NCBI GenBank assembly: GCA_043824495.1
Contig: JBDRSV010000026.1
Coordinates: 1-43,381 of the forward strand
Direction of reading: 5' to 3'
Length of the DNA stretch: 43,381 nt
From: Candidatus Aenigmatarchaeota archaeon
GTDB lineage: Archaea > Aenigmatarchaeota > Aenigmatarchaeia > QMZP01
Shown piece by piece: positions 113 through 28,614 of the stretch (its first letter is position 1; each line of letters starts with the position of its first letter). The notes beneath the pieces are model-generated. The model had not been told where the DNA came from. It did no database searches and worked only from the letters and a program-made list of their open reading frames with translations. A program made the position numbers and the translations under genes.

Positions 113-682
113 ATGATCAGTAGGCACGTCAGTCCGAAGGAGCAGAAGATTCGGCACATCATAGATTTGGCAATCGGAATACCAAGCATTATTAGGATGT
201 GTGAACGTGGTGCCAGTGTGGTGATAGAAAACAAGTTTGATCCCCTCCTCAATAAGCTAATCCCGGTTAAGAGCAAAATAGACCTAGATAAAATAAGGGA
301 GGAGTTCTGTCGCTGGGCAGAAAGCAACATAAAACAATGCAAAAGTAAAGAAGTGCGGCTCGTCTCATGGGGACAGGCCGCAAAAATATTTGACGTGGGG
401 CTTAAGGTGTGTGTTTACTATTGCCATCTACCTGACAACAACACAGCGAATCGAATATCACCATTTCTCAACTGCCCCATTGACGAGCAGATACAGAGTG
501 TGTTGGTGAGAAACGGACTTCTGGATAAGAACACCAGGCTTAAAAAAATGGGAAAGGAACACTATGAAAAAATACAGTACGCCGTTAGGGAAGATATGAA
601 AACACTTGTTGGTGTGCGCCACCCAATCGAATATGACGAAGTGAACTGGGAACCAGAAAAATTCTTAAAGGTGAGTAAATAA
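113..682 (+). CDS. hypothetical protein, possible divergent HhH-GPD-like DNA glycosylase fold
   Basis: 189 aa ORF. SWGQAAKIFDVGLK followed by CPIDEQIQSVLVRNGL loosely resembles the HhH hairpin plus PVD catalytic-Asp motif. Fold call is tentative. Confidence 0.55.
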   Translation: MISRHVSPKEQKIRHIIDLAIGIPSIIRMCERGASVVIENKFDPLLNKLIPVKSKIDLDKIREEFCRWAESNIKQCKSKEVRLVSWGQAAKIFDVGLKVCVYYCHLPDNNTANRISPFLNCPIDEQIQSVLVRNGLLDKNTRLKKMGKEHYEKIQYAVREDMKTLVGVRHPIEYDEVNWEPEKFLKVSK

Positions 683-723
683 GATGGTAATTAGTTTTTT
701 AATTATAAACACTTTAGTAAATC

Positions 724-1491
724 ATGGTAGTTGATAACGAACTCTACAAAGAGCTTCTAACCTTTTGTGATAAAATAAAGGAACAACAGAGGTTTAGATT
801 CGAATCCAATATAATGTTCTCTAATTTGAACGAGAAGTGTTATACTGAAATGTTTCTAAACAGGAAAACACCAACAAGGCCGCTCGTCTTTAAAGACGGA
901 CCAATAACAGAACTAAAAACACTTTGTTCAGAATGTGCTAGATTTCATATGACAAGAAGGAATGAGATGATAAAGGGGTTTGATATACAACACGGGCACT
1001 GGTTTGAAGATGCTTTCAGAGATTTCTTACGTAGCAAAAACATCGAAACGAAAAAAAGAGGATTCCCATTTCCTGATATAGAAGTAATAAAAAACAATAA
1101 CCCAGTGGCGTATTTTGAACTCAAATATATTAGATCGCCGTTCATTTATGCTAACAGTAAAGTGGATAATAGTAGATGGTGTTACGAATGTTCTCTAACT
1201 TTGGATATTGGGGAAAAGCTTACGAAACAGAGAAACAAAATAGAGGACGAGCTGCTTTCAGCTAATATTCCTGTTTTTTATGTTTGGTGGTTTGATGCTC
1301 CATGTATAAAGGGAATATTTTTCATGACAGCAGAAGAGGTGTTTGATTTTTGGGATAGTGTTGGAACATCCCACGAGAGAAAAGAAAGACTTGGTGACGC
1401 CGAAGCTAAACAGGAAAGAGGCAAGATTTACCCACCGCTATTGGAAATGAAGGGGTTGGACAAGTTTATTAAAACTATCTCTAAATCTTAA
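724..1491 (+). CDS. PD-(D/E)XK nuclease, restriction endonuclease-like
   Basis: FEDAF...PFPDIEVIK...YFELKY gives the E...PD-x(n)-ELK catalytic core; lies next to methyltransferases. Confidence 0.7.
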   Translation: MVVDNELYKELLTFCDKIKEQQRFRFESNIMFSNLNEKCYTEMFLNRKTPTRPLVFKDGPITELKTLCSECARFHMTRRNEMIKGFDIQHGHWFEDAFRDFLRSKNIETKKRGFPFPDIEVIKNNNPVAYFELKYIRSPFIYANSKVDNSRWCYECSLTLDIGEKLTKQRNKIEDELLSANIPVFYVWWFDAPCIKGIFFMTAEEVFDFWDSVGTSHERKERLGDAEAKQERGKIYPPLLEMKGLDKFIKTISKS

Positions 1492-1494
1492 TAG

Positions 1495-2946
1495 ATGTTC
1501 AAAATTAAAAGGAAGACCGGACAAATTAGGTCTGGTTCCCTGGAGATTGGTAACAAAAAAACAGAAACTCCATGTTTCTTTGCGACATCAGATTTTGGAG
1601 GTGGTGGCACCAACGTAAGTAGACTTCTCGTTTATTCTGATCTCTTTCGTAACAGTAAATCTCAATTGTTGATGAATTATTATTATCTTGATATCAACTC
1701 AGATTCAACACCAAGATTTGATACGAATCTGATAAGAATTCTTTCAGAGTTCAAAAACATAAATAGTTTTATTCAGTATGTTAAAAAAGAATATCTGGAG
1801 TCCGCATCAAAAAAAGCAATTAAAAATTACAAATATGAAAAGGAAACCGTATGGCTACCAATAATATTACTTGATTCTGGTTCTGGAAACATTCTGAGGG
1901 GTAAGATCAAAGGAGGAGAGCTCACAACAGAGAATTACAAAAACAAATATAAGAAACTAATAGACGATTACTTTAGCTTTTCAATATCAAACAAATTTGA
2001 CATAATTATTGCTATGGACTTTGCTGGTAAAAACACATTGAAAGCCGGAGAAATGAAAGACAAAGAATATGTTTCTAACGTTGTTAAATTTAGCGGCAAT
2101 GAATACAACTTTGAATTACTTAGATTGACACTAGATTACATGAAAGAAAACAAAACAACAATAAACGTATTAGCACCAATTCACGGTAACAATCCCAGAG
2201 AATACGAAGAGTATATTAAGAAAATATTATCAATGGAGAGAAAAGAGAAAATTAGTTTTTCTGGTTTCGCTATTGGTGGATTAGGTAATCCAAATCAAAT
2301 AAACAAAAAGGTATGGGATATCCCAGATAACGTGAATGGGAAGATAAAAGCTGCATTATATCTATTGAAAATTAGTTCAATAATAAGAAATATTCTAAAT
2401 GAAAACAGTGATGATAGAACTATTCATATACTGGGTTCTGCCTCTCATTACAATTTGATACCACTGATTTATTCTGGTTGTGATACTTTTGATTGTCATA
2501 GTGCGTGGAGAAGAGCTTCAGATGGAAATCAAATATCAAAAGAGTGTGTTTTCGATGAAAGTAAAATTAAAGAGCATGAAACCGCAGGAGAAAACATAAG
2601 CTTTTCAAAAGTACTTGTTTCGCTCTTAGATTCGAATCTAAATGTTATAACAGAGAATAAGAACAAGTTTTTGGAGTTTGTAAACATCAACAAATATGAT
2701 TTTAAATGCGACTGTTTTGTGTGTAACAATATTGGTTTTGATGTAGTAAAAAAGTTGTATTGTGGAAATACAGAAGAAAATTATTATGCGAAAATATTGA
2801 TATATCTTCACAATATTATTCAGTATGATTTTATTTGTGAAAGGATGAGGGTGTTCAAAGATGAAAGATCCTTCAAAGAATTTATAGAATCCATACCAGA
2901 ATGCCAATTCAAAAAAAACATGATAGATATACTATTTCCAGAATGA
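1495..2946 (+). CDS. TGT-fold (tRNA-guanine transglycosylase/DpdA-like) base-exchange enzyme
   Basis: RSGSLEIGNKKTETP N-terminus, LLDSGSG, IAMDF, PIHG, GFAIGGL, HILG, GCDTFDC, zinc site CDCFVC...LHN; no PUA domain evident. Confidence 0.85.
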   Translation: MFKIKRKTGQIRSGSLEIGNKKTETPCFFATSDFGGGGTNVSRLLVYSDLFRNSKSQLLMNYYYLDINSDSTPRFDTNLIRILSEFKNINSFIQYVKKEYLESASKKAIKNYKYEKETVWLPIILLDSGSGNILRGKIKGGELTTENYKNKYKKLIDDYFSFSISNKFDIIIAMDFAGKNTLKAGEMKDKEYVSNVVKFSGNEYNFELLRLTLDYMKENKTTINVLAPIHGNNPREYEEYIKKILSMERKEKISFSGFAIGGLGNPNQINKKVWDIPDNVNGKIKAALYLLKISSIIRNILNENSDDRTIHILGSASHYNLIPLIYSGCDTFDCHSAWRRASDGNQISKECVFDESKIKEHETAGENISFSKVLVSLLDSNLNVITENKNKFLEFVNINKYDFKCDCFVCNNIGFDVVKKLYCGNTEENYYAKILIYLHNIIQYDFICERMRVFKDERSFKEFIESIPECQFKKNMIDILFPE

Positions 2947-2947
2947 T

Positions 2948-3739
2948 TTATTCAAATACATCTTTAACTGTTTTTTGTGATGTTTCATTATCAATTCTTT
3001 GTATTATCATTTTTTTAAATTTATTATCAAGCTCGTAACCTATAGAATTCCTCTCAAGTCTTTTTGCTGCAATTAATGTTGTTCCTGATCCAACAAAGGG
3101 ATCTAAAACCCAATCATTCTTATTGGTTGACATTTTTATTATTCTTTCAATCATCGTAACAGGATAAACACAAGGATGATTTTCAATACCTAATCTTTTT
3201 TTGGTAACATTATTTACTCTATCAAAATACCAAACATCAGTTGGATTTCTTCCTGCCTTGGTATCAAATCTTTTATCCCTCTTGGTTATACATGGAATTT
3301 TAACATCTTTCAAATTGAAAACATAATTATTAATGTCTTTTACAAACCAAAGAACTGCTTCCCATCGACCGCTAAGTCTATTTATACAATTCTGCATATT
3401 ATTGAAATGCCAAACGATTTTATTTCTCAAATAAAATCCGTTTTTTTTCCCAAGTTCCCATGCTATGCTATCAAGAGGTATAATTTCCTTTGTCTTTTTG
3501 TTTGGTATTGGACTTACATTTAAGAAGAAACTACCATCATCAGTAAGTACCCTATGAACTTCTTTCATTGTCGTGTTTATAAGGGCCTTCCATTCTTCTA
3601 AATGCACATCATCAGAATACATTCCATAATTTTTTTTGAGATTATATGGTGGTGATGTCACAACCATTCTAATCGTGTTTGATTTTATTTTTTTCATTAA
3701 TTTTCTACAGTCCCCAAAATCATATTTGGTTTTAACCAT
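2948..3739 (-). CDS. beta-class amino-methyltransferase (N6_N4_Mtase), probably m4C
   Basis: VTSPPYN (motif IV) precedes HPCVYP and VLDPFVGSGTT (motif I); GGAGGT Shine-Dalgarno upstream. Confidence 0.92.
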   Translation of the reverse strand: MVKTKYDFGDCRKLMKKIKSNTIRMVVTSPPYNLKKNYGMYSDDVHLEEWKALINTTMKEVHRVLTDDGSFFLNVSPIPNKKTKEIIPLDSIAWELGKKNGFYLRNKIVWHFNNMQNCINRLSGRWEAVLWFVKDINNYVFNLKDVKIPCITKRDKRFDTKAGRNPTDVWYFDRVNNVTKKRLGIENHPCVYPVTMIERIIKMSTNKNDWVLDPFVGSGTTLIAAKRLERNSIGYELDNKFKKMIIQRIDNETSQKTVKDVFE

Positions 3740-4607
3740 TTTTATGACCTCCGCGTTTAATAAAATCTAGTAAAGTTTTATTATCCATGTGGAAATAAAA
3801 ATCGCGTACATCTTTAGATTTTCTTTTCTTTCTATGACTCGAAGCTTTCAGCCTATCTTCGGCAATTTTGACATAATCTTTATTTGTATCATAACCTATG
3901 AAATTTCTATTCAAATCTTTAGCTACTCTAGCAGTGGTTCCACTTCCAATAAAAGGATCTAAAACAACATCATTTTCGTTCGATGCGACCTTTATTATTC
4001 GTTCTATCATTTCTTCAGGATATTGCGCTGGATGTATAGTTCTTTCTGGATAATTTCCACTTATCATTTGCATGTACCAAACATCAGTTGGATTTTTCAA
4101 TTGGCTCTTGAATCTATCCGGTCTATAATTTAGTGCTGGTATTTTCACATCATCTAAATTGTATGTATAATTATCTTTGTTTTTAGTAAACCAAAAAATA
4201 TATTCATATCTTGGTGAAAATCTCTTATTAGTTGAACCTCCCCAATCAAAATTCCAAATTATTATATTTTTCAAATGCATATCTTCGAAAAAATCTGTTA
4301 TCCAGAAAGGAGGCAATATTACACCATTTTTATATCTGTTTTTGATATTTATCCATATAGAACCATCATCTTTTAAAACCCTTTTACATTCTTGGAATAC
4401 TTTAGACAAAAGTTTCAAATATTCTCCTTCAGATAGTTTATCTTCATATTTCACTCCTTTACTTGTTATTGCTTTACCATTCTTGTGATTATTCCCATAA
4501 TGAACACCAATATTATATGGTGGTGAAGTTACCACTAGAGATATAATTTTATCTTCTATTTCTGACATTTCTTCTGAACTTTTACAATATAATTTATTTA
4601 CTTCCAT
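3732..4607 (-). CDS. beta-class amino-methyltransferase (N6_N4_Mtase), probably m4C
   Basis: VTSPPYN, HPAQYP, VLDPFIGSGTT. Start placed at MEVNKLY (4607) rather than 4688 because the upstream part overlaps the small regulator gene. Confidence 0.92.
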   Translation of the reverse strand: MEVNKLYCKSSEEMSEIEDKIISLVVTSPPYNIGVHYGNNHKNGKAITSKGVKYEDKLSEGEYLKLLSKVFQECKRVLKDDGSIWINIKNRYKNGVILPPFWITDFFEDMHLKNIIIWNFDWGGSTNKRFSPRYEYIFWFTKNKDNYTYNLDDVKIPALNYRPDRFKSQLKNPTDVWYMQMISGNYPERTIHPAQYPEEMIERIIKVASNENDVVLDPFIGSGTTARVAKDLNRNFIGYDTNKDYVKIAEDRLKASSHRKKRKSKDVRDFYFHMDNKTLLDFIKRGGHKNG

Positions 4608-4752
4608 TCCTTTCACCCCACACATCCATAAGTCTAAGTATTGCTTTCTCAAGCGTAACACGTTCATCCGAAGACTGTTGGATTTCACCCATTATGCGCA
4701 GAAGCCGGCTGTGAGTCTTTCTATGTACTTTGATGAGTTTACTATCTGCCAT
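4594..4752 (-). CDS. small ribbon-helix-helix-like regulator (52 aa), putative controller of the MTase operon
   Basis: MADSKLIKVHRKTHSRLLRIMGEI...TLEKAILRLM has a beta-alpha-alpha pattern; its stop overlaps the start of MTase 1. Confidence 0.6.
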   Translation of the reverse strand: MADSKLIKVHRKTHSRLLRIMGEIQQSSDERVTLEKAILRLMDVWGERNGSK

Positions 4753-4807
4753 AAGTATACTTAGTAGTAAAAATATATAAAGTTTACTTATTATAATATA
4801 CTTATGG
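4749..4807. promoter_or_regulatory. symmetric bidirectional promoter/operator
   Basis: 11-bp inverted repeat CCATAAGTATA (4749-4759)/TATACTTATGG (4797-4807) containing both start codons; palindrome TAAGTATACTTA (4752-4763); AGTAAA/TTTACT flanking a central ATATATAA box. Confidence 0.65.
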
Positions 4808-5466
4808 ATAAGCAAATAGTGATCTCGTCGTCAAGCATATCATTATTCCTGGAATGCCCGAGATGCTTCTGGTTGCACAGAGTGAAAGGAATCAAGAGGC
4901 CACCTATGATATTCCCGTCGCTGCCGAGTGGCATGGACCGAGTTCTGAAGGAGCATTTCGATGGTCACCGCAGCAAGGGCAGGAAGCCAAAGGAACTGCA
5001 CGGCAAGTTTACAGGCCATTTATACGCTGATGTGGCCAAATTGAACGAATGGCGCAACAACAGGAAAGGGCTTCGCTATACGGACAAGGACTCTGGCATA
5101 GTGCTGATGGGGGCATTGGATGACTTGTTTGTGGCGCCGGACGGGCTATATGCGCCGCTTGATTTCAAGACGAGGGGATTCCCGCTGAAGCCGGATACCC
5201 ATACATATTATCAGAACCAGATGGACATTTATTCGTTCCTGCTCAAGGCGAACGGTATGCCTCCAGCAGGGTTCGCCATTTTGATATTCTATCATCCGAA
5301 GAAGGTTGACGAGAACTGCAACGTGGACTTCCAGCCAGATTGTGTTAAAATAAAGACAAGCGTCGCTGCAGGGAAGAGACTGTTTACAGACGCCATGAAA
5401 TGCCTGCTACAGAAAAAAGAACCGAAGGCAAGCACAGACTGCCCGTTTTGTGGATGGAATCATTAA
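4804..5466 (+). CDS. Cas4-like/RecB-family PD-(D/E)XK nuclease (solo, no CRISPR context)
   Basis: ISSSSISLFLECPRCFW, GALDD, LDFKT, QMDIY, C-terminal CPFC. Confidence 0.85.
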   Translation: MDKQIVISSSSISLFLECPRCFWLHRVKGIKRPPMIFPSLPSGMDRVLKEHFDGHRSKGRKPKELHGKFTGHLYADVAKLNEWRNNRKGLRYTDKDSGIVLMGALDDLFVAPDGLYAPLDFKTRGFPLKPDTHTYYQNQMDIYSFLLKANGMPPAGFAILIFYHPKKVDENCNVDFQPDCVKIKTSVAAGKRLFTDAMKCLLQKKEPKASTDCPFCGWNH

Positions 5467-5473
5467 TATTAAT

Positions 5474-5896
5474 CTAAAATAAATTACTCACATCTTCCCT
5501 TAGATTTTCAATCGTTTCTTTTCGCTCTTCTTCTGTGAGTTCTGGGTTTTTTTCTTTGAGCATATTATCCAATTCTTGTATTATGGTTTCTTCCTTAATG
5601 CCATTGGGCCTGGCCAAGAACAATGCCAAAAGTTTGCCGTCTTCCGTTAGTTCATATACCTTGTTCTGAGTCCTTTCAATAAATCCTTTTTCCTCAAGTT
5701 TTCTTAAACCCTTTAGCACAGTCGATATTTCAATTTCTATTTTGTCCCGGGTTTTTATATCCGCTATTATACCTGAAAGTGTGTTCTTTCCATGTAGAAG
5801 ACTAATCAATATTTTCTGTCTTTTTTCAGTCAGCAGACTGATATCCTCAGACCCCAGGCTTGGTATCGGCATGCAAAAAATCTTTTCTCTCACCAT
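5474..5896 (-). CDS. winged-helix transcriptional regulator
   Basis: ILISLLHGKNTLSGI...ISTVLKGLRKLEEKGFIER...YELTEDGK; AGGTGA SD just upstream of ATG 5896. Confidence 0.8.
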   Translation of the reverse strand: MVREKIFCMPIPSLGSEDISLLTEKRQKILISLLHGKNTLSGIIADIKTRDKIEIEISTVLKGLRKLEEKGFIERTQNKVYELTEDGKLLALFLARPNGIKEETIIQELDNMLKEKNPELTEEERKETIENLREDVSNLF

Positions 5897-6581: not shown

Positions 6582-6583
6582 TA

Positions 6584-6655
6584 GCCCCGGTAGCGTACCG
6601 TCAACGCACCTGTTTTGGTAAACAGGAGAACAGGGTTAGATCCCCTGTCGGGGCT
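6584..6655 (+). tRNA. aberrant tRNA-Thr(GGT)-like gene or pseudogene with 8-nt anticodon loop
   Basis: GCCCCGG/TCGGGGC acceptor, T73, D stem GCGT/ACGC, anticodon stem CCTGT/ACAGG with loop TTTGGTAA, T stem CAGGG/CCCTG; D-loop lacks GG; T-loop is TTAGATC. Confidence 0.6.
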
Positions 6656-6710
6656 TATTATGTTAACATTGTATTTGATACTTAAAGGTATTATTATGAC
6701 CATGTAAGAT

Positions 6711-6911
6711 TCATTTCCACCAGACCCAGACGCCCTTGCCTCCAGCGCTGATGCGCTTGCCCTTTATTTTTCCTTCGGCGCGGAGATCAGTTAGCCTGTA
6801 CATTATTTTGCTCCTGGTGGTTCCTTTCATCTTGCTTTCAATCTCCCTAGTCTCCAGCGGTTCCTCTGAACTCTTTAGTATTTTAAGAATTTTCTGGGAG
6901 ATATTGTCCAT
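6711..6911 (-). CDS. small winged-helix DNA-binding protein (66 aa)
   Basis: MDNISQKILKILKSSEEPLETREIESKMKGTTRSKIMYRLTDLRAEGKIKGKR...WVWW; start reassigned from 7154 to 6911. Confidence 0.75.
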   Translation of the reverse strand: MDNISQKILKILKSSEEPLETREIESKMKGTTRSKIMYRLTDLRAEGKIKGKRISAGGKGVWVWWK

Positions 6912-6933
6912 ATACAATAATTCTTTTTCTTCA

Positions 6934-7021
6934 TATATAAGCTTATCGGTGGTTGTACCGATAGCTTTAAATATCCCCAGGAGAAATAATAATACATTCA
7001 TCGGTGAATCTATCGGTGAAT
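6934..7021. promoter_or_regulatory. divergent promoter with repeated (T)ATCGGT operator boxes
   Basis: TATCGGT-N6-ACCGATA (6944-6963) lies between TATATAA (6934-6940) and TTTAAATA (6966-6973); direct repeats ATCGGTGAAT at 7000-7009 and 7012-7021. Confidence 0.6.
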
Positions 7022-7071
7022 ATAACCAGAAGGGGAGTTTTGAAGACAGCCCCTCCTGGACGGAGCGAATC

Positions 7072-8643
7072 ATGCGAGATACCAACTCCGCAATGGAGAG
7101 TTTGGAGAAGGAGATTAATAAGGCTTTCGACAGCTTCAGCAACAGGCTAAGCATATCAATATCGGAATTCTTGAGAGAGCTTGATGTAACCTCATTGGTT
7201 TCGCATATTTTCAGAAACTACAGCGAGCCTTGGAGATATAGGCACAATCCCAAAGCCATGATCAAGGCAACCTTTTTTATGAAGCTGAAGGGATTCAAAT
7301 TCCAGACACAACTGATAAAACACTTAAATGAAAATATTGGAGATGCGTGGAACCTCGGGTGTGATGTCGGCAGAAGGGAAAAGACAAGGATAGTCAGCAG
7401 AAGGGCATTTAACCATTTCATGAACGAGAGGATTACAAAAGACGTGTGGGAACTCATCAATTTCGCGTCCAACTGCATAAAAAAGAAAGCGGTTGAAAGA
7501 GGAAAACTGTTTGATTTGCCTTCAGTTGAAAAGGAAAAGAAATGTTCTGACAGGACACATTTCAGGAAGAAGCAGGCAAAAACTATAGAACTATGCAAGC
7601 TCATGAGAAAGACAATATATCCGCAGATAAGATTAGAGATAGCCCAAAACTCAGTTTACAAGAAAAAGGATTTTCTGGACCTCATAACACATGTGGCGCT
7701 GACTCACGATTTTGCGGAGAACGGTTCTGCAACCATGAAATTGGAAAGGGACAAGACGCCGGATGCGGACACGCTATTATATCACATCAAGAAGTACGGA
7801 CACAGGAAGGAAGTGGAGGGAATGTTCGAAAGAATATTCGATATGACATTCGAGATGGCCAGAAAATCGGGCTTCCTGAAGAGGCCCGTAGACCTTGCGA
7901 TAGACTGCACGGACATAATGTATTATGGGGATAGGGAGGACTACATGGTTGTCGGCACGAAGCCGGGAAAGGGGACAAACTACGCCTTCAGATTCGCCAC
8001 GGTCAATATAGTGGAGAACGGGGAAAGGTACGTCCTTTTCGCTCTCCCCGTGGCTGTGAAGACGAGGAAAGTGGACATTGTTGAAAGATTGCTTAGATAC
8101 GCCAATGGAAAGGTCAGAATCAAGACACTGTTCATGGACAGGGGGTTCTTCAGCACGGATGTAATAGAGTATCTGAACAGAAAGGGCATAAAGTTCATTA
8201 TGCCTGCCACGAAGAACTGGAGAATAAAACGCCTTATGGAAAAGGTTGAGACTCCTTACGTTTCTGACTACAAGATGAAAAACCTCTGGATGAAATCAAC
8301 GACATGGTTCAAGCTTATCATACTCACGAAGGATGGGAACAAATATGCCTTCGCCACGAACACGGAAGTTACGAAGATGTCGGCTGTCCTGCTACCGGAG
8401 AAGTACAGTAGGAGATGGGGCATAGAAACGAGTTATCGTGTGAAAGAATGTTTTAGAGCTCGCACAACATCGAAGAATTACATAATCAGATTATTCTATT
8501 TTATGTTCTCTATCACTCTTTACAACCTCTGGGTAATCGTGAACGCGATGCTCTGTATGTTCCTCTACGGAAAGAATGGAGAAAAACCGTTGGTGACTGC
8601 GAAGATTGTGGGGACACTGCTGATAATGGCAGACATGCCGTAG
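7072..8643 (+). mobile_element. ISH3-family (IS4 superfamily) DDE transposase with an N-terminal extension
   Basis: LAIDCTD...YYG, KPGKGTNYAFRFAT, LFMDRGFFS, YSRRWGIETSYR. Start approximate (ATG 7072 or 7093). Higher GC than flanks. No convincing TIRs found. Confidence 0.85.
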
Positions 8644-8709
8644 CAAACTCTAATCTAATTAATTTAAACATGCTTTTCTTATTCTAAGATATATCATTGT
8701 CATTTATTT

Positions 8710-8793
8710 GACGGAGTTCCCGAGCGGTCAAAGGGATCGAACTACCAATTCGATGAATTAGTTTCTTCGTGGGTTCGAATCCCGCCTCCTATT
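8710..8793 (+). pseudogene. class II (Leu/Ser-type) tRNA-like gene with ACC anticodon and damaged acceptor stem
   Basis: D arm CCCGAGCGGTCAAAGGG, anticodon arm TCGAA-CTACCAA-TTCGA, long variable region, T arm GTGGG-TTCGAAT-CCCGC; acceptor GACGGAG/CTCCTAT has two mismatches. Confidence 0.65.
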
Positions 8794-28510: not shown

Positions 28511-28605
28511 GCCCTAGTAGCTCAGTGGTTAGAGCGCCCGATTTCCTTCGTGGAAAGGCGAAGCTGTTAACCGGTAGGTCGAAGGTTCAAATCCTTCCTA
28601 GGGCG
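28511..28605 (+). tRNA. trnN: tRNA-Asn(GTT) with a 22-nt non-canonical intron at 30/31 (28541-28562)
   Basis: GCCCTAG/CTAGGGC acceptor, GCTC/GAGC D stem, CTGTTAA loop, TTCAAAT T-loop; BHB with central helix CGCC/GGCG, bulges CGA and AAG, intron stem TTTCC/GGAAA. Confidence 0.93.
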
Positions 28606-28614
28606 CTGATTCAT

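Follow-up and report, generated by a model that had tools for sequence, protein, structure and literature searches.

A candidate Type II-like restriction-modification cassette that combines a divergent TGT-fold enzyme with a PD-(D/E)XK nuclease and two m4C-type methyltransferases

What could an enzyme with the tRNA-guanine transglycosylase (TGT) fold do when its gene lies between those of a nuclease and of two DNA methyltransferases (MTases)? This question is raised by a cassette in the window, which is the whole 43,381-nucleotide stretch of archaeal DNA analysed here and which belongs to a MAG that is 80% complete. To our knowledge, the TGT fold has hitherto been known only for installing 7-deazaguanines, in tRNA, in DNA and on a CBASS protein. 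Nearly all restriction enzymes known to us are phosphodiesterases, with the base-excising R.PabI family as the single exception, and we know of no described restriction system that attacks DNA guanines with a TGT fold. The reading that is tentatively favoured here, taken as one joint proposal, is that the cassette is a horizontally acquired Type II-like restriction-modification (R-M) unit, whose restriction arm includes the TGT-fold enzyme as the component that removes guanine from unmethylated sites or captures it there.

The cassette consists of a four-gene module and a small open reading frame (ORF), located at positions 724-4752 of the window. On the forward strand, the gene of a PD-(D/E)XK-fold nuclease (P0002, 255 aa, 724-1491), with an N-terminal helical region and a C-terminal nuclease core, is followed by that of a divergent TGT-fold enzyme with the catalytic Asp residues and the Zn site (P0001, 483 aa, 1495-2946). 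This pair converges on a reverse-strand unit composed of beta-class DNA MTase 2 (P0004, 263 aa, 2948-3739), beta-class DNA MTase 1 (P0005, 291 aa, 3732-4607) and a 52-aa ORF (4594-4752). The complete ORF of MTase 1 extends from 3732 to 4688 with a GTG at 4688, and the ATG at 4607, as read from the sequence, is its likely start. The original prediction described a nuclease and a TGT gene 3 nt apart, abutting stops of the TGT and MTase 2 genes and overlaps among the reverse-strand genes. This layout is confirmed, as the gap is 3 nt, the stop codons lie 1 nt apart, the MTases share 8 nt and the small ORF overlaps the start of MTase 1. An ORF at 113-682 had also been counted as part of the module and has been removed from it; because this ORF has no family match and a counterpart in none of the related loci, the module is taken to begin at 724. 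The GC content falls to 0.30-0.34 across the cassette, and an IS and tRNA genes adjoin it.

P0001 belongs to the TGT superfamily. It passes the gathering threshold of the Pfam TGT family PF01702 (52.5 bits, E 5e-14, threshold 26.3), and its AF2 model (pLDDT 93.7, pTM 0.93) has the TIM-barrel TGT fold. In structural comparisons (VIA), five TGT-superfamily structures rank top, namely arcTGT (Z 28.9), bTGT (26.1), QTRT2 (22.4), Cap10 (19.8) and DpdA (19.6), and other barrels reach a Z of at most 13.9. The best PDB profile match is bTGT. The previously noted motifs D127-S-G, M-D175-F, G-C-D330-T-F-D333, C405-D-C407-F-V-C410 and H439-N are all present, with C405, C407, C410 and H439 as the residues of the Zn site. 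It had been claimed that the catalytic Asp equivalents are kept, and D127, D175 and D333 are indeed invariant in an alignment of 49 family members. These residues map to E. coli D89, D143 and D264, respectively, and by correspondence with E. coli Tgt, D127 would be the general acid/base, D175 would serve in base recognition and D333, the second Asp of GCDTFD, would be the nucleophile. Judged by these residues, P0001 is apparently a catalytically intact and active TGT-fold enzyme. In a motif scan, about 110 of the 115 family members had the DSG-type and D[CS]H[ST]xWRR motifs, whereas 46 of the 115 had lost the structural Zn motif; since the catalytic motifs are kept while the Zn motif is often lost, the chemistry is under selection and not the fold alone.

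P0001 fits no curated TGT subfamily and is part of a small clade with a sharp boundary. It scores 33.5 bits against TIGR00430 (bacterial Tgt), which has an equivalog cut-off of 306.75, and matches neither TIGR00432 (archaeal TgtA) nor, at E <= 0.01, the NCBIfam DpdA model NF041059. The latter model is matched weakly by 21 of the 49 family members (best E 4e-8), which match the general tgt, bTGT and arcTGT models more strongly. In addition, the family has motifs (GGGGTNVSR, NYYYL, HG replacing QG, FDCHSxWRR) and insertions of its own, a nearly invariant His230 occupies the place of the pocket Gln (Z. mobilis Q203), and P0001 ends at the catalytic domain, with no PUA extension. A comparison with tRNA-acting TGTs by HMM and phylogeny had been proposed as a check; P0001 stands apart from the housekeeping enzymes, with scores far below the curated cut-offs, and in three other hosts its relatives occur alongside a canonical arcTGT or bTGT.

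The nuclease P0002 has no match in Pfam, NCBIfam or PADLOC. The sequence P-D118...E132-L-K134 is its putative catalytic motif, in which D118, E132 and K134 are invariant in 31 homologs, and its AF2 model (pLDDT 88.6) matches Hjc, RecU, D212, I-Ssp6803I and many type II REases (Foldseek, VIA; Z 5-8.6). Both the motif and these structural matches place the 255-aa protein in the PD-(D/E)XK superfamily, to which the original prediction had assigned it. MTase 2 matches PF01555 (N6_N4_Mtase; E 3.5e-55) and the PADLOC Type II MTase models. MTase 1 also matches PF01555 (E 2.2e-62), and its closest solved relative is the DNA cytosine-N4 methyltransferase 8s9m (E 1e-26). Both MTases and every ortholog have the motif order TSPPY...DPFxGSGTT, with TSPPY rather than (D/N)PPY as motif IV, which assigns them to the beta-class N4-cytosine type; the earlier m4C-type label, which rested on SPPY, is thus supported, and this motif makes N4-methylcytosine the probable methylated product. 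Orthologs of MTase 2 (56-77% identical, all with TSPPY) and of MTase 1 (63-77% identical) are present in all loci.

Each of the 13 independent loci with sufficient flank has the nuclease, TGT-like, P0004-type and P0005-type genes together. These loci come from Aenigmarchaeota, Woesearchaeota, Iainarchaeota, Bathyarchaeia, Patescibacteria, Chitinophagales and Bacteroidales, and their flanks are unrelated. The neighbourhood search that had been suggested therefore shows that the combination of TGT, N6_N4_Mtase and PDDEXK recurs in distant lineages, and this return of the same gene set argues for a real functional unit. No published description of the cassette was found in the literature, in agreement with the claim that it is new. 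The cassette was absent from 60 relatives of the host and from 400 other Bacteroidales species genomes, and no members of the P0001 family were found in IMG/VR, phage or plasmid collections, in contrast to phage DpdA. The linkage of two PF01555 MTases with a PD-(D/E)XK nuclease in 13 loci of distant taxa, together with its absence from the host's relatives, is that of a Type II R-M system, and the cassette is rare, sporadic and horizontally moving.

The arrangement of the genes indicates with which partner the TGT-like protein is associated. Gene order varies (nuclease-TGT or TGT-nuclease, with convergent or colinear MTases), and in those loci that are split into two convergent units, the TGT gene is in the nuclease unit and never in the MTase unit. 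It adjoins the nuclease gene in every locus showing that side and, except in locus L006, overlaps it or lies at most 3 nt away. No fusion of nuclease and TGT was found, in a search that is weak evidence. Over 12 loci, the MTases have a mean pairwise identity of 66-71%, compared with 45% in the nuclease and 40% in the TGT-like protein. The latter diverges as fast as the nuclease, and all four proteins co-vary (r 0.59-0.89). This gradient in sequence identity is the usual pattern of a conserved M and a fast R component.

A 7-deazaguanine supply seems to be missing in the host lineage. The original prediction had noted that DpdB, DpdC and que genes are absent, and none was seen among the scanned ORFs of the window, including any ParB-like (DpdB-like) gene; also, the related loci have neither DpdB, DpdC nor the preQ0 synthesis genes (folE, queD, queE, queC) among their called genes. 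In the 80%-complete host genome, QueD, QueE and DpdC have no match, the QueC model gives only a weak PP-loop match, and P0001 is the sole PF01702 protein. PF01702 proteins and QueC are also absent from 30 relatives of the host's order, 15 of which are at least 90% complete. Two other DPANN carriers lack both a canonical TGT and a genuine QueC, with the cassette TGT as their sole PF01702 protein. Of the three carriers with a canonical arcTGT or bTGT besides the cassette TGT, a Woesearchaeota carrier has an arcTGT and no QueC, and Bacteroides cellulosilyticus has both QueC and a bTGT. Because TGT and QueC are missing from the 30 genomes of the host's order, a DpdA-like insertion of preQ0 is unlikely here, and since this lineage is without 7-deazaguanine synthesis, the guanines of foreign DNA are the most likely target of the TGT-fold enzyme.

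In the mechanism proposed here, the two paralogous, strand-specific beta-class MTases would mark both strands of an asymmetric site in host DNA, with the small upstream ORF as the probable regulator of both enzymes. The restriction arm would be formed by the tightly linked and probably translationally coupled PD-(D/E)XK nuclease and TGT-fold enzyme. The latter most likely flips out a guanine in or beside an unmethylated site and would break the glycosidic bond through the conserved Asp nucleophile D333, leaving an abasic site or a covalent enzyme-DNA intermediate, at which the nuclease would then cut the backbone. Self DNA would be protected from this attack by the N4-methylated partner cytosines, and a supply of 7-deazaguanine would be unnecessary. 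A bolder version, considered slightly less likely, makes P0001 itself a restriction enzyme, namely a methyl-sensitive DNA guanine glycosylase or 'suicide' transglycosylase, which would depurinate unmethylated invader sites or link itself covalently to them, so that the partner nuclease converts the lesion into a break. From the genomic context we infer that DNA is the substrate of the TGT; its place in the restriction rather than the modification arm, the glycosidic chemistry, the methylated base and a physical complex of nuclease and TGT are likewise predictions. The first option of the original prediction, guanine excision and then cleavage, agrees with the way the operon is built and with the evolutionary rates, and the excision itself stays presumptive. 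Against it stands that the TGT enzymes characterised so far swap one base for another without hydrolysis; hydrolysis or trapping would be a chemistry new to this fold.

The intact active site also bears on a reading in which the TGT-like protein breaks no glycosidic bond. Here it would be a specificity subunit that flips and holds guanine, reads an asymmetric site and its methylation and positions the nuclease, much as the recognition half does in a Type IIS/IIT enzyme. With its two R-side genes, its pair of MTases and a regulator, the cassette is built like heteromeric Type II systems for asymmetric sites, the TGT-like gene overlaps the nuclease gene or lies at most 3 nt off and diverges at the pace of a restriction component, and the base-recognition residue D175 is invariant. 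However, the nucleophile D333 and the acid/base D127 are invariant too, among members that are only about 30% identical, and with the Zn site dispensable in 46 of 115 members, the conservation of D333 and D127 would not be expected from binding alone, which makes this reading unlikely. BbvCI and Bpu10I are heteromeric Type II (IIT/IIS) enzymes of this kind, encoded with two R genes and two M genes, and both of their R subunits are PD-(D/E)XK nucleases that each cut one strand. The BbvCI subunit 6eg7 matches the nuclease model at Z 4.5, and two strand-specific MTases, two co-transcribed R-side genes, often a controller and a mobile cassette make up a layout that these systems share with the one described here. 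Unlike in these systems, one of the two R-side genes of the cassette encodes a TGT fold with an intact transglycosylase site, which sets the cassette apart from Type IIT.

The second option of the original prediction was a dual-mark system, in which a DpdA-like DNA transglycosylase inserts 7-deazaguanine or a scavenged base beside m4C in host DNA. DpdA, the DNA-guanine transglycosylase of Dpd islands and phages (PDB 7ui4; PMC10164549, PMC6884629), shows that the TGT fold can exchange guanine in DNA (PMC10164549). It shares with P0001 the fold, the catalytic Asp residues, the defence or R-M context and guanine in DNA as the presumed target. The weak NF041059 matches of 21 of the 49 members, the QueC and bTGT of B. 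cellulosilyticus and the arcTGT without QueC of the Woesearchaeota carrier, which hints at salvage, are also in favour of this option, and it is conceivable that DPANN cells obtain preQ0 or other bases by scavenging from their hosts. On the other hand, the lack of QueC and of another TGT in the host and its 30 relatives, of a genuine QueC in the other DPANN carriers, of QueD, QueE and DpdC matches in the 80%-complete host and of a ParB-like gene among the scanned window ORFs disfavours a 7-deazaguanine mark. DpdA is only the fifth-best structural match, below arcTGT, and P0001 does not match NF041059. Its partners are a PD-(D/E)XK nuclease and two m4C-type MTases, with no DpdC or preQ0 genes found. 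The TGT gene is grouped with that of the nuclease rather than with the MTase genes, shows the divergence of a restriction gene and was not found in phages, and the pocket Gln has become His230. P0001 is probably on the restriction side, whereas DpdA is on the modification side, and a second mark is therefore considered quite unlikely.

The 255-aa PD-(D/E)XK enzyme and the two MTases could also be a complete R-M system alone, with another role for the TGT-like protein. One such role would be on tRNA, in which it might, for instance, remove or exchange a guanine as a back-up or abortive-infection arm, for which PrrC, an anticodon nuclease embedded in a Type I locus, is a precedent. As its model is closer to the tRNA-acting arcTGT and bTGT (Z 28.9 and 26.1) than to DpdA (Z 19.6), and as bTGT is its best PDB profile match, P0001 may have an RNA substrate. 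The best structural matches, arcTGT and bTGT (1iq8, 3unt), also share the catalytic Asp residues and the CxCxxC...H Zn site with it. However, their identity to P0001 is 17-19%, P0001 lacks the PUA and C-terminal tRNA-binding domains of arcTGT and has its own motifs and insertions, and its family occurs in an R-M context, in hosts that have no tRNA TGT or have their own. In addition, the TGT gene is tightly linked to the nuclease gene and its product varies in step with each of the three DNA enzymes, the cassette has no conserved sensor or regulator component, and the host order manages without a tRNA TGT; an RNA-directed effector is accordingly improbable. A housekeeping tRNA-guanine transglycosylase that is a chance neighbour of an R-M system is close to refuted: although the host genome, like those of two other DPANN carriers, has the cassette TGT as its sole PF01702 protein, a TGT is missing from all 30 relatives, so that the lineage has no need of one, three other carriers also own a canonical arcTGT or bTGT, the linkage to the same three partners is strict in bacteria and archaea, and the TIGR00430 score is 33.5 against 306.75 bits.

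For the favoured reading, in which the TGT-fold enzyme removes or captures guanine in the restriction arm, the closest parallel in logic is found in the R.PabI or HALFPIPE restriction glycosylases (PMC4357717, PMC5388411, PMC10273834). In these enzymes, methyl-inhibited base excision is followed by strand breakage at the abasic site, and R.PabI is the only restriction-glycosylase superfamily listed in a 2023 review. The logic proposed for the cassette is identical, but the HALFPIPE fold is unrelated to the TGT TIM barrel, and no HALFPIPE structure is among the listed matches of the P0001 and nuclease models, both of which confidently match other folds. R.PabI excises adenine as a single protein with its own AP-lyase activity and one m6A MTase, whereas in the cassette the base attacked is likely guanine, the nuclease is a separate protein and the MTases are two, both m4C-type. 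A TGT fold drafted into an immune system is also known from Cap10 (9ntn), a type IV CBASS enzyme that, together with the QueC-like Cap9, conjugates deazaguanine to protein (bioRxiv 10.1101/2025.04.06.647259); the cassette differs in having neither Cap9/QueC nor a CD-NTase.

If the favoured reading is true, a second, unrelated fold for base-excision restriction would broaden the chemistry by which bacteria and archaea are known to defend themselves innately. For the first time, tRNA-guanine transglycosylase chemistry would be seen to damage rather than modify a nucleic acid, and in minimal DPANN and CPR genomes a TGT active site would work with no deazaguanine supply. An enzyme that excises or exchanges guanine in a site-specific and methylation-sensitive way could serve in DNA labelling or editing. 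As there is a cultured carrier, Bacteroides cellulosilyticus DSM 14838, the question is directly testable.

The 52-aa ORF at the 5' end of the MTase unit is a putative small DNA-binding regulator. The earlier RHH label was given by eye only and has no HMM support, as profile searches gave no family match for this ORF. In loci L001 and L003/L004, a small ORF that is not homologous to it is found at the same position, and in the Bacteroidota loci an HTH_3 protein takes its place. An AT-rich intergenic stretch of 52 bp (4752-4804) lies 5' of the ORF and is a candidate promoter or operator. It contains three copies of TAAGTATA, which are the sole matches in the 43-kb window; three matches are the chance expectation for a window of this size, and the clustering alone is notable. 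One of the TAAGTATA copies forms the palindrome TAAGTATACTTA over the start codon of the 52-aa ORF.

The gene layout was read from a six-frame ORF listing and translation, which bore out the gene set of the original prediction over 724-4752. A nuclease gene (724-1491, + strand, 255 aa) is followed after 3 nt by the TGT-like gene (1495-2946, + strand, 483 aa). On the opposite strand, MTase 2 (2948-3739, - strand, 263 aa) is convergent on this pair, a single nucleotide separating the stop codons, and has an 8-nt overlap with MTase 1 (3732-4688, - strand). The start of MTase 1 is likely the ATG at 4607, resulting in 291 aa, as long as its orthologs. A 52-aa ORF (4594-4752, - strand) overlaps the MTase 1 start, so the overlaps between these three genes stand as described, but no support was found for the ribbon-helix-helix label of the small ORF, which had no Pfam or NCBIfam match and no conservation. 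In Pfam, the 483-aa protein matches PF01702 (TGT; E 5e-14) and both minus-strand methyltransferases match N6_N4_Mtase (E 4e-55 and 2e-62); PADLOC labels the latter two Type II MTases. No family was assigned to the 255-aa protein or the 52-aa ORF in Pfam, NCBIfam, PADLOC or PHROGs. The coordinates of the original prediction had also taken in an ORF at 113-682 (+ strand, 189 aa), which is rejected as a member, as it has no family match and no homolog in any of the fetched loci. This ORF has a stop codon of its own, and 41 nt lie between it and the nuclease gene. An AT-rich, TATA-like stretch separates this ORF from the nuclease gene.

Homologs of the TGT-like protein and the nuclease form 115 and 68 clusters, respectively, and are found in archaea (Aenigmarchaeota, Woesearchaeota, Micrarchaeia, Iainarchaeota, Bathyarchaeia and Freyarchaeota) and in bacteria (Patescibacteria, Chitinophagales, Flavobacteriia and Bacteroidales). 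The whole cassette is present in the cultured Bacteroides cellulosilyticus DSM 14838, as locus L020 with the TGT-like gene at G005:C40:16367-17623; the cultured Kordia zhangzhouensis and Myroides marinus are known here from nuclease homologs only. Neighbourhoods of the homologs were fetched, and every ORF was scored with HMMs of the four cassette proteins. The nuclease, the TGT-like gene and one MTase of each type were present together in 13 of the 13 independent loci with enough flank, so the neighbourhood search proposed in the original prediction shows that the combination recurs. In L006, the sole locus without MTases, the sequence stops 247 nt upstream of the nuclease. The gene order is nuclease-TGT in most loci and TGT-nuclease in two (L018 and L019), and the MTases have a convergent arrangement in the loci of archaea, Patescibacteria and Chitinophagales and a colinear one in Bacteroidales. 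The flanks are unrelated, with a primase-integrase element in Woesearchaeota, a Type I system in Patescibacteria and metabolic genes in Chitinophagales. This linkage, which persists across domains despite rearrangement, is strong evidence that the four genes are one functional unit. A variant cassette is found in Bathyarchaeia (L014:9437-14348), in which the counterpart of MTase 1 is a longer, fused form of 529 aa and an additional 731-aa DPPY (m6A-type) MTase is convergent on the TGT gene.

The distribution of the cassette is sporadic. It was absent from 60 relatives of the host that were searched and from 400 other Bacteroidales species genomes sampled, so that no Bacteroidales carrier was added to the one already known. 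One aenigmarchaeal cassette (L001:187-4460) lies beside a HATPase_c_3 protein and a D12 adenine MTase, and one in Patescibacteria (L003:1-1002) lies beside a Type I HsdM; these defence-like neighbours indicate that the cassette lands in defence islands.

The AlphaFold2 model of the 483-aa protein, built with a 49-sequence alignment, has a pLDDT of 93.7 and a pTM of 0.93. In an exhaustive structural comparison, the top five matches were the archaeal tRNA-guanine transglycosylase (arcTGT) 1iq8 (Z 28.9), the bacterial enzyme (bTGT) 3unt (26.1), QTRT2 (22.4), Cap10 of CBASS (19.8) and DpdA 7ui4 (19.6). Generic TIM barrels rank below the TGT superfamily entries (Z <= 13.9), and Foldseek agrees with the superfamily matches. 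At the sequence level, a single-sequence phmmer search against the PDB gave only marginal matches to E. coli Tgt (E 0.3), and the family profile matched solved structures of bTGT (E 2e-5), DpdA (E 2e-4) and arcTGT (E 4e-3). The window protein reaches 33.5 bits with the bTGT model, where the cut-off is 306.75 bits, and has no match to the DpdA model. Among 49 family members, 39 match the general tgt model, 36 bTGT, 25 arcTGT and 21 DpdA (E 4e-8 at best); none of these matches comes near its cut-off, and no curated subfamily fits. In a search of 1.84 billion cluster representatives, 48 were retrieved at E <= 1e-30 and 197 at E <= 1e-3. The family is a small, sharply bounded clade that is about equidistant from all characterised TGTs. 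In its HMM and structural parts, the proposed comparison with bTGT, arcTGT and DpdA supports the TGT fold and shows no close kinship to any one subfamily. The family has signatures of its own (GGGGTNVSR, NYYYL and FDCHSxWRR), and a nearly invariant His230 takes the place of the pocket Gln of canonical TGTs.

Alignments also upheld the catalytic Asp equivalents and the Zn site that had been described as intact. D127, D175 and D333 are invariant in the 49-member alignment, and alignment to E. coli Tgt and to the canonical TGTs of other carriers equates them with the acid/base Asp, the base-recognition Asp and the nucleophile. Their E. coli counterparts are D89, D143 and D264, respectively. The predicted nucleophile of the window protein is the second Asp of GCDTFD, because the alignment maps D333 to the nucleophile Asp. 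The Zn ligands are C405, C407, C410 and H439. To our knowledge, the CxCxxC...H zinc site is structural in all characterised TGTs. In this family, CxCxxC is missing in 46 of the 115 members, mostly in a Bacteroidales subclade of about 421 aa (e.g. P0081; loci L008 and L016-L020), but motif scans found the DSG-type and nucleophile D[CS]H[ST]xWRR motifs kept in about 110 of 115, from which selection seems to hold the chemistry tighter than the structural metal site.

The model of the 255-aa protein has a pLDDT of 88.6. Over residues 85-255, its structural matches are Hjc, RecU, the fusellovirus nuclease D212, I-Ssp6803I and a large number of type II restriction enzymes, at a Foldseek probability of about 1.0 and a Z of up to 8.6 in the VIA structural comparison. 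The motif P-D118...E132-L-K134 is invariant in 31 nuclease homologs. Fold matches and invariant residues both agree with the earlier PD-(D/E)XK label, and the modelled protein is a predicted nuclease of this type with a family-specific N-terminal helical region. It was the fold search that found these matches; the nuclease-family profile gave nothing meaningful against PDB sequences. Complex prediction from the alignments of the two proteins, TGT-like and nuclease, scored 0.00 where the mark is 0.32, which speaks neither for nor against binding. A search for fused nuclease-TGT or other long forms (847-2415 aa) found none, a negative that carries little weight.

MTase 1 and MTase 2 are paralogs with 38% identity, and both, as well as all orthologs, have the beta-class motif order with TSPPY as motif IV. 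Motif IV is SPP(Y/F) in N4-cytosine enzymes and (D/N)PPY in N6-adenine enzymes. Among solved structures, MTase 1 has its best relative in a cytosine-N4 methyltransferase, and the motif-based m4C assignment of both enzymes is retained as probable. A recognition site was sought among the k-mers (k = 4-7) that the 1.01-Mb host genome avoids relative to a maximal-order Markov model. No asymmetric C/G-containing avoided word stood out in this range; the top avoided words were generic, GTAC, TTAA and GGATCC among them.

The TGT gene is the neighbour of the nuclease gene in every case, with an overlap or a gap of no more than 3 nt everywhere but in L006, and where cassettes split into two convergent units it lies in the nuclease unit, never in the MTase unit. 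Across 12 loci, the TGT-like protein has a mean pairwise identity of 40% and the nuclease one of 45%, compared with 66% and 71% for the two MTases; the four proteins co-vary (r 0.59-0.89). Slow M and fast R components are the usual pattern of R-M systems. On these rates, the TGT-like protein behaves like an R component.

The preferred reading, a tentative one given a little less than an even chance, is a Type II-like R-M system whose restriction arm consists of the nuclease and a TGT-fold enzyme acting on guanine in unmethylated DNA. It follows the first option of the original prediction, guanine excision at unmethylated sites followed by cleavage, and fits the placement and the rates; observation ends at residue conservation, and every later mechanistic step is one that we infer. 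In this scheme, two strand-specific m4C-type MTases would protect an asymmetric site, and a catalytically competent TGT-fold enzyme would attack guanine where the DNA is unmethylated. TGT enzymes work through an Asp nucleophile that displaces guanine, resulting in a covalent ribosyl-enzyme intermediate that normally awaits an incoming base. In DpdA, this fold exchanges guanine in DNA (PMC10164549). Without a deazaguanine, the intermediate might be hydrolysed to an abasic site or persist as a lasting DNA-protein adduct, either of which could be the substrate or anchor for the partner nuclease. On self DNA, an N4-methyl group on the cytosine paired with or beside the target guanine would block the reaction. 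The restriction glycosylase R.PabI is a logical precedent, but its fold is unrelated (PMC4357717, PMC10273834).

That the TGT-fold protein is a specificity subunit that only binds DNA is unlikely, as its nucleophile and acid/base Asp are invariant. Archaeosine and 7-deazaguanine metabolism are widespread in archaea. The host genome, a 1.01-Mb MAG of 80% completeness, contains no other TGT, QueD, QueE or DpdC, and gave only a weak PP-loop match in the QueC search. Because of this completeness, 30 relatives from the genus, family and order were added (0.8-1.5 Mb, with a completeness of 90% or more in 15); not one of the 30 has a PF01702 protein or QueC, and control genomes gave the expected matches. 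The host lineage therefore appears to be without any 7-deazaguanine metabolism, and the entire order seems to lack both this and archaeosine. Other carriers in Aenigmarchaeota and Iainarchaeota have the cassette TGT only and no genuine QueC, those in Woesearchaeota and Bathyarchaeia have a canonical arcTGT besides it, and B. cellulosilyticus has bTGT and QueC. From this survey, the enzyme is unlikely to depend on preQ0 as DpdA does, unless the cells scavenge the base. The dual-mark option of the original prediction, a DpdA-like modification with 7-deazaguanine as the second mark beside m4C, is accordingly less probable than a binding subunit: the preQ0 pathway is missing, the TGT gene is placed in the nuclease operon, and the family is absent from phages, with no member found in IMG/VR or in phage and plasmid collections. 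Less probable again is a tRNA-directed, PrrC-like back-up effector, which would agree with a structure closer to the tRNA TGTs but is offered no support by the genomic context. A fortuitous housekeeping TGT is very improbable, as the same survey argues that the protein is not a housekeeping tRNA enzyme.

In the full-text literature, with REBASE outside the scope, no system was found that couples a gene of the TGT fold with a PD-(D/E)XK nuclease and a pair of N4/N6 MTases, and within that scope the original statement that no such system has been described holds. The only systems described there are the Dpd systems, phage DpdA, Cap10 in CBASS, the R.PabI family, the TGT/GNAT modules of BREX-related capture systems (PMC12839542) and glycosylases attacking deazaguanine-modified phages (bioRxiv 10.1101/2025.10.29.685425). 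The cassette is classed as an R-M system, one enzyme of which is undescribed; if the preferred excision or trapping mechanism is true, it would be new enzymology.

Upstream of the small ORF, TAAGTATA occurs in just three copies in the 43-kb window, all inside 52 bp at 4752-4804, and one copy gives rise to the palindrome TAAGTATACTTA, located over the 52-aa ORF's start codon. These repeats may be an operator for the 52-aa protein. In the archaeal and Patescibacteria loci compared, the small ORFs at the regulator position are not homologous to the 52-aa ORF, and Bacteroidota loci have an HTH_3 protein there; by sequence comparison, the putative cassette regulator is not conserved between loci.

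The GC content is 0.30-0.34 over the cassette versus about 0.36-0.44 in the surrounding DNA. Beside it lie genes for a Cas4-like protein, a winged-helix protein and a DDE transposase as well as a tRNA-like fragment and a tRNA gene, and the remaining window is ordinary archaeal chromosome (STT3/AglB, DUF1512 and glycosyltransferases). The Cas4-like PD-(D/E)XK protein (4804-5466, + strand; PF12705 E 2e-8, phrog_31195 E 8e-40) is divergent from the small ORF and was rejected as a cassette member, being absent from related loci. It has two paralogs with 63% identity elsewhere in the host genome (C24:127991-128641 and C11:8539-9171) and may be part of a repeated mobile or viral element. The 140-aa winged-helix protein (5474-5896, - strand), with weak MarR/PadR matches and a match to the Csa3 C-terminal wHTH (PADLOC E 9e-7), was likewise rejected, having no counterpart in related loci. 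No CRISPR-Cas genes were seen among the window ORFs scanned. Further along are a 74-nt tRNA-like element with an unassignable anticodon (6583-6656), a 635-aa DDE_Tnp_1/DUF772 transposase (6736-8643) and an 84-nt 'tRNA-Gly(ACC)' call (8710-8793). The stretch 6583-8793 resembles an IS that has inserted into or close to a tRNA gene, a sign that the DNA beside the cassette is variable. A 96-nt tRNA-Arg at 28511-28606 may be intron-bearing.
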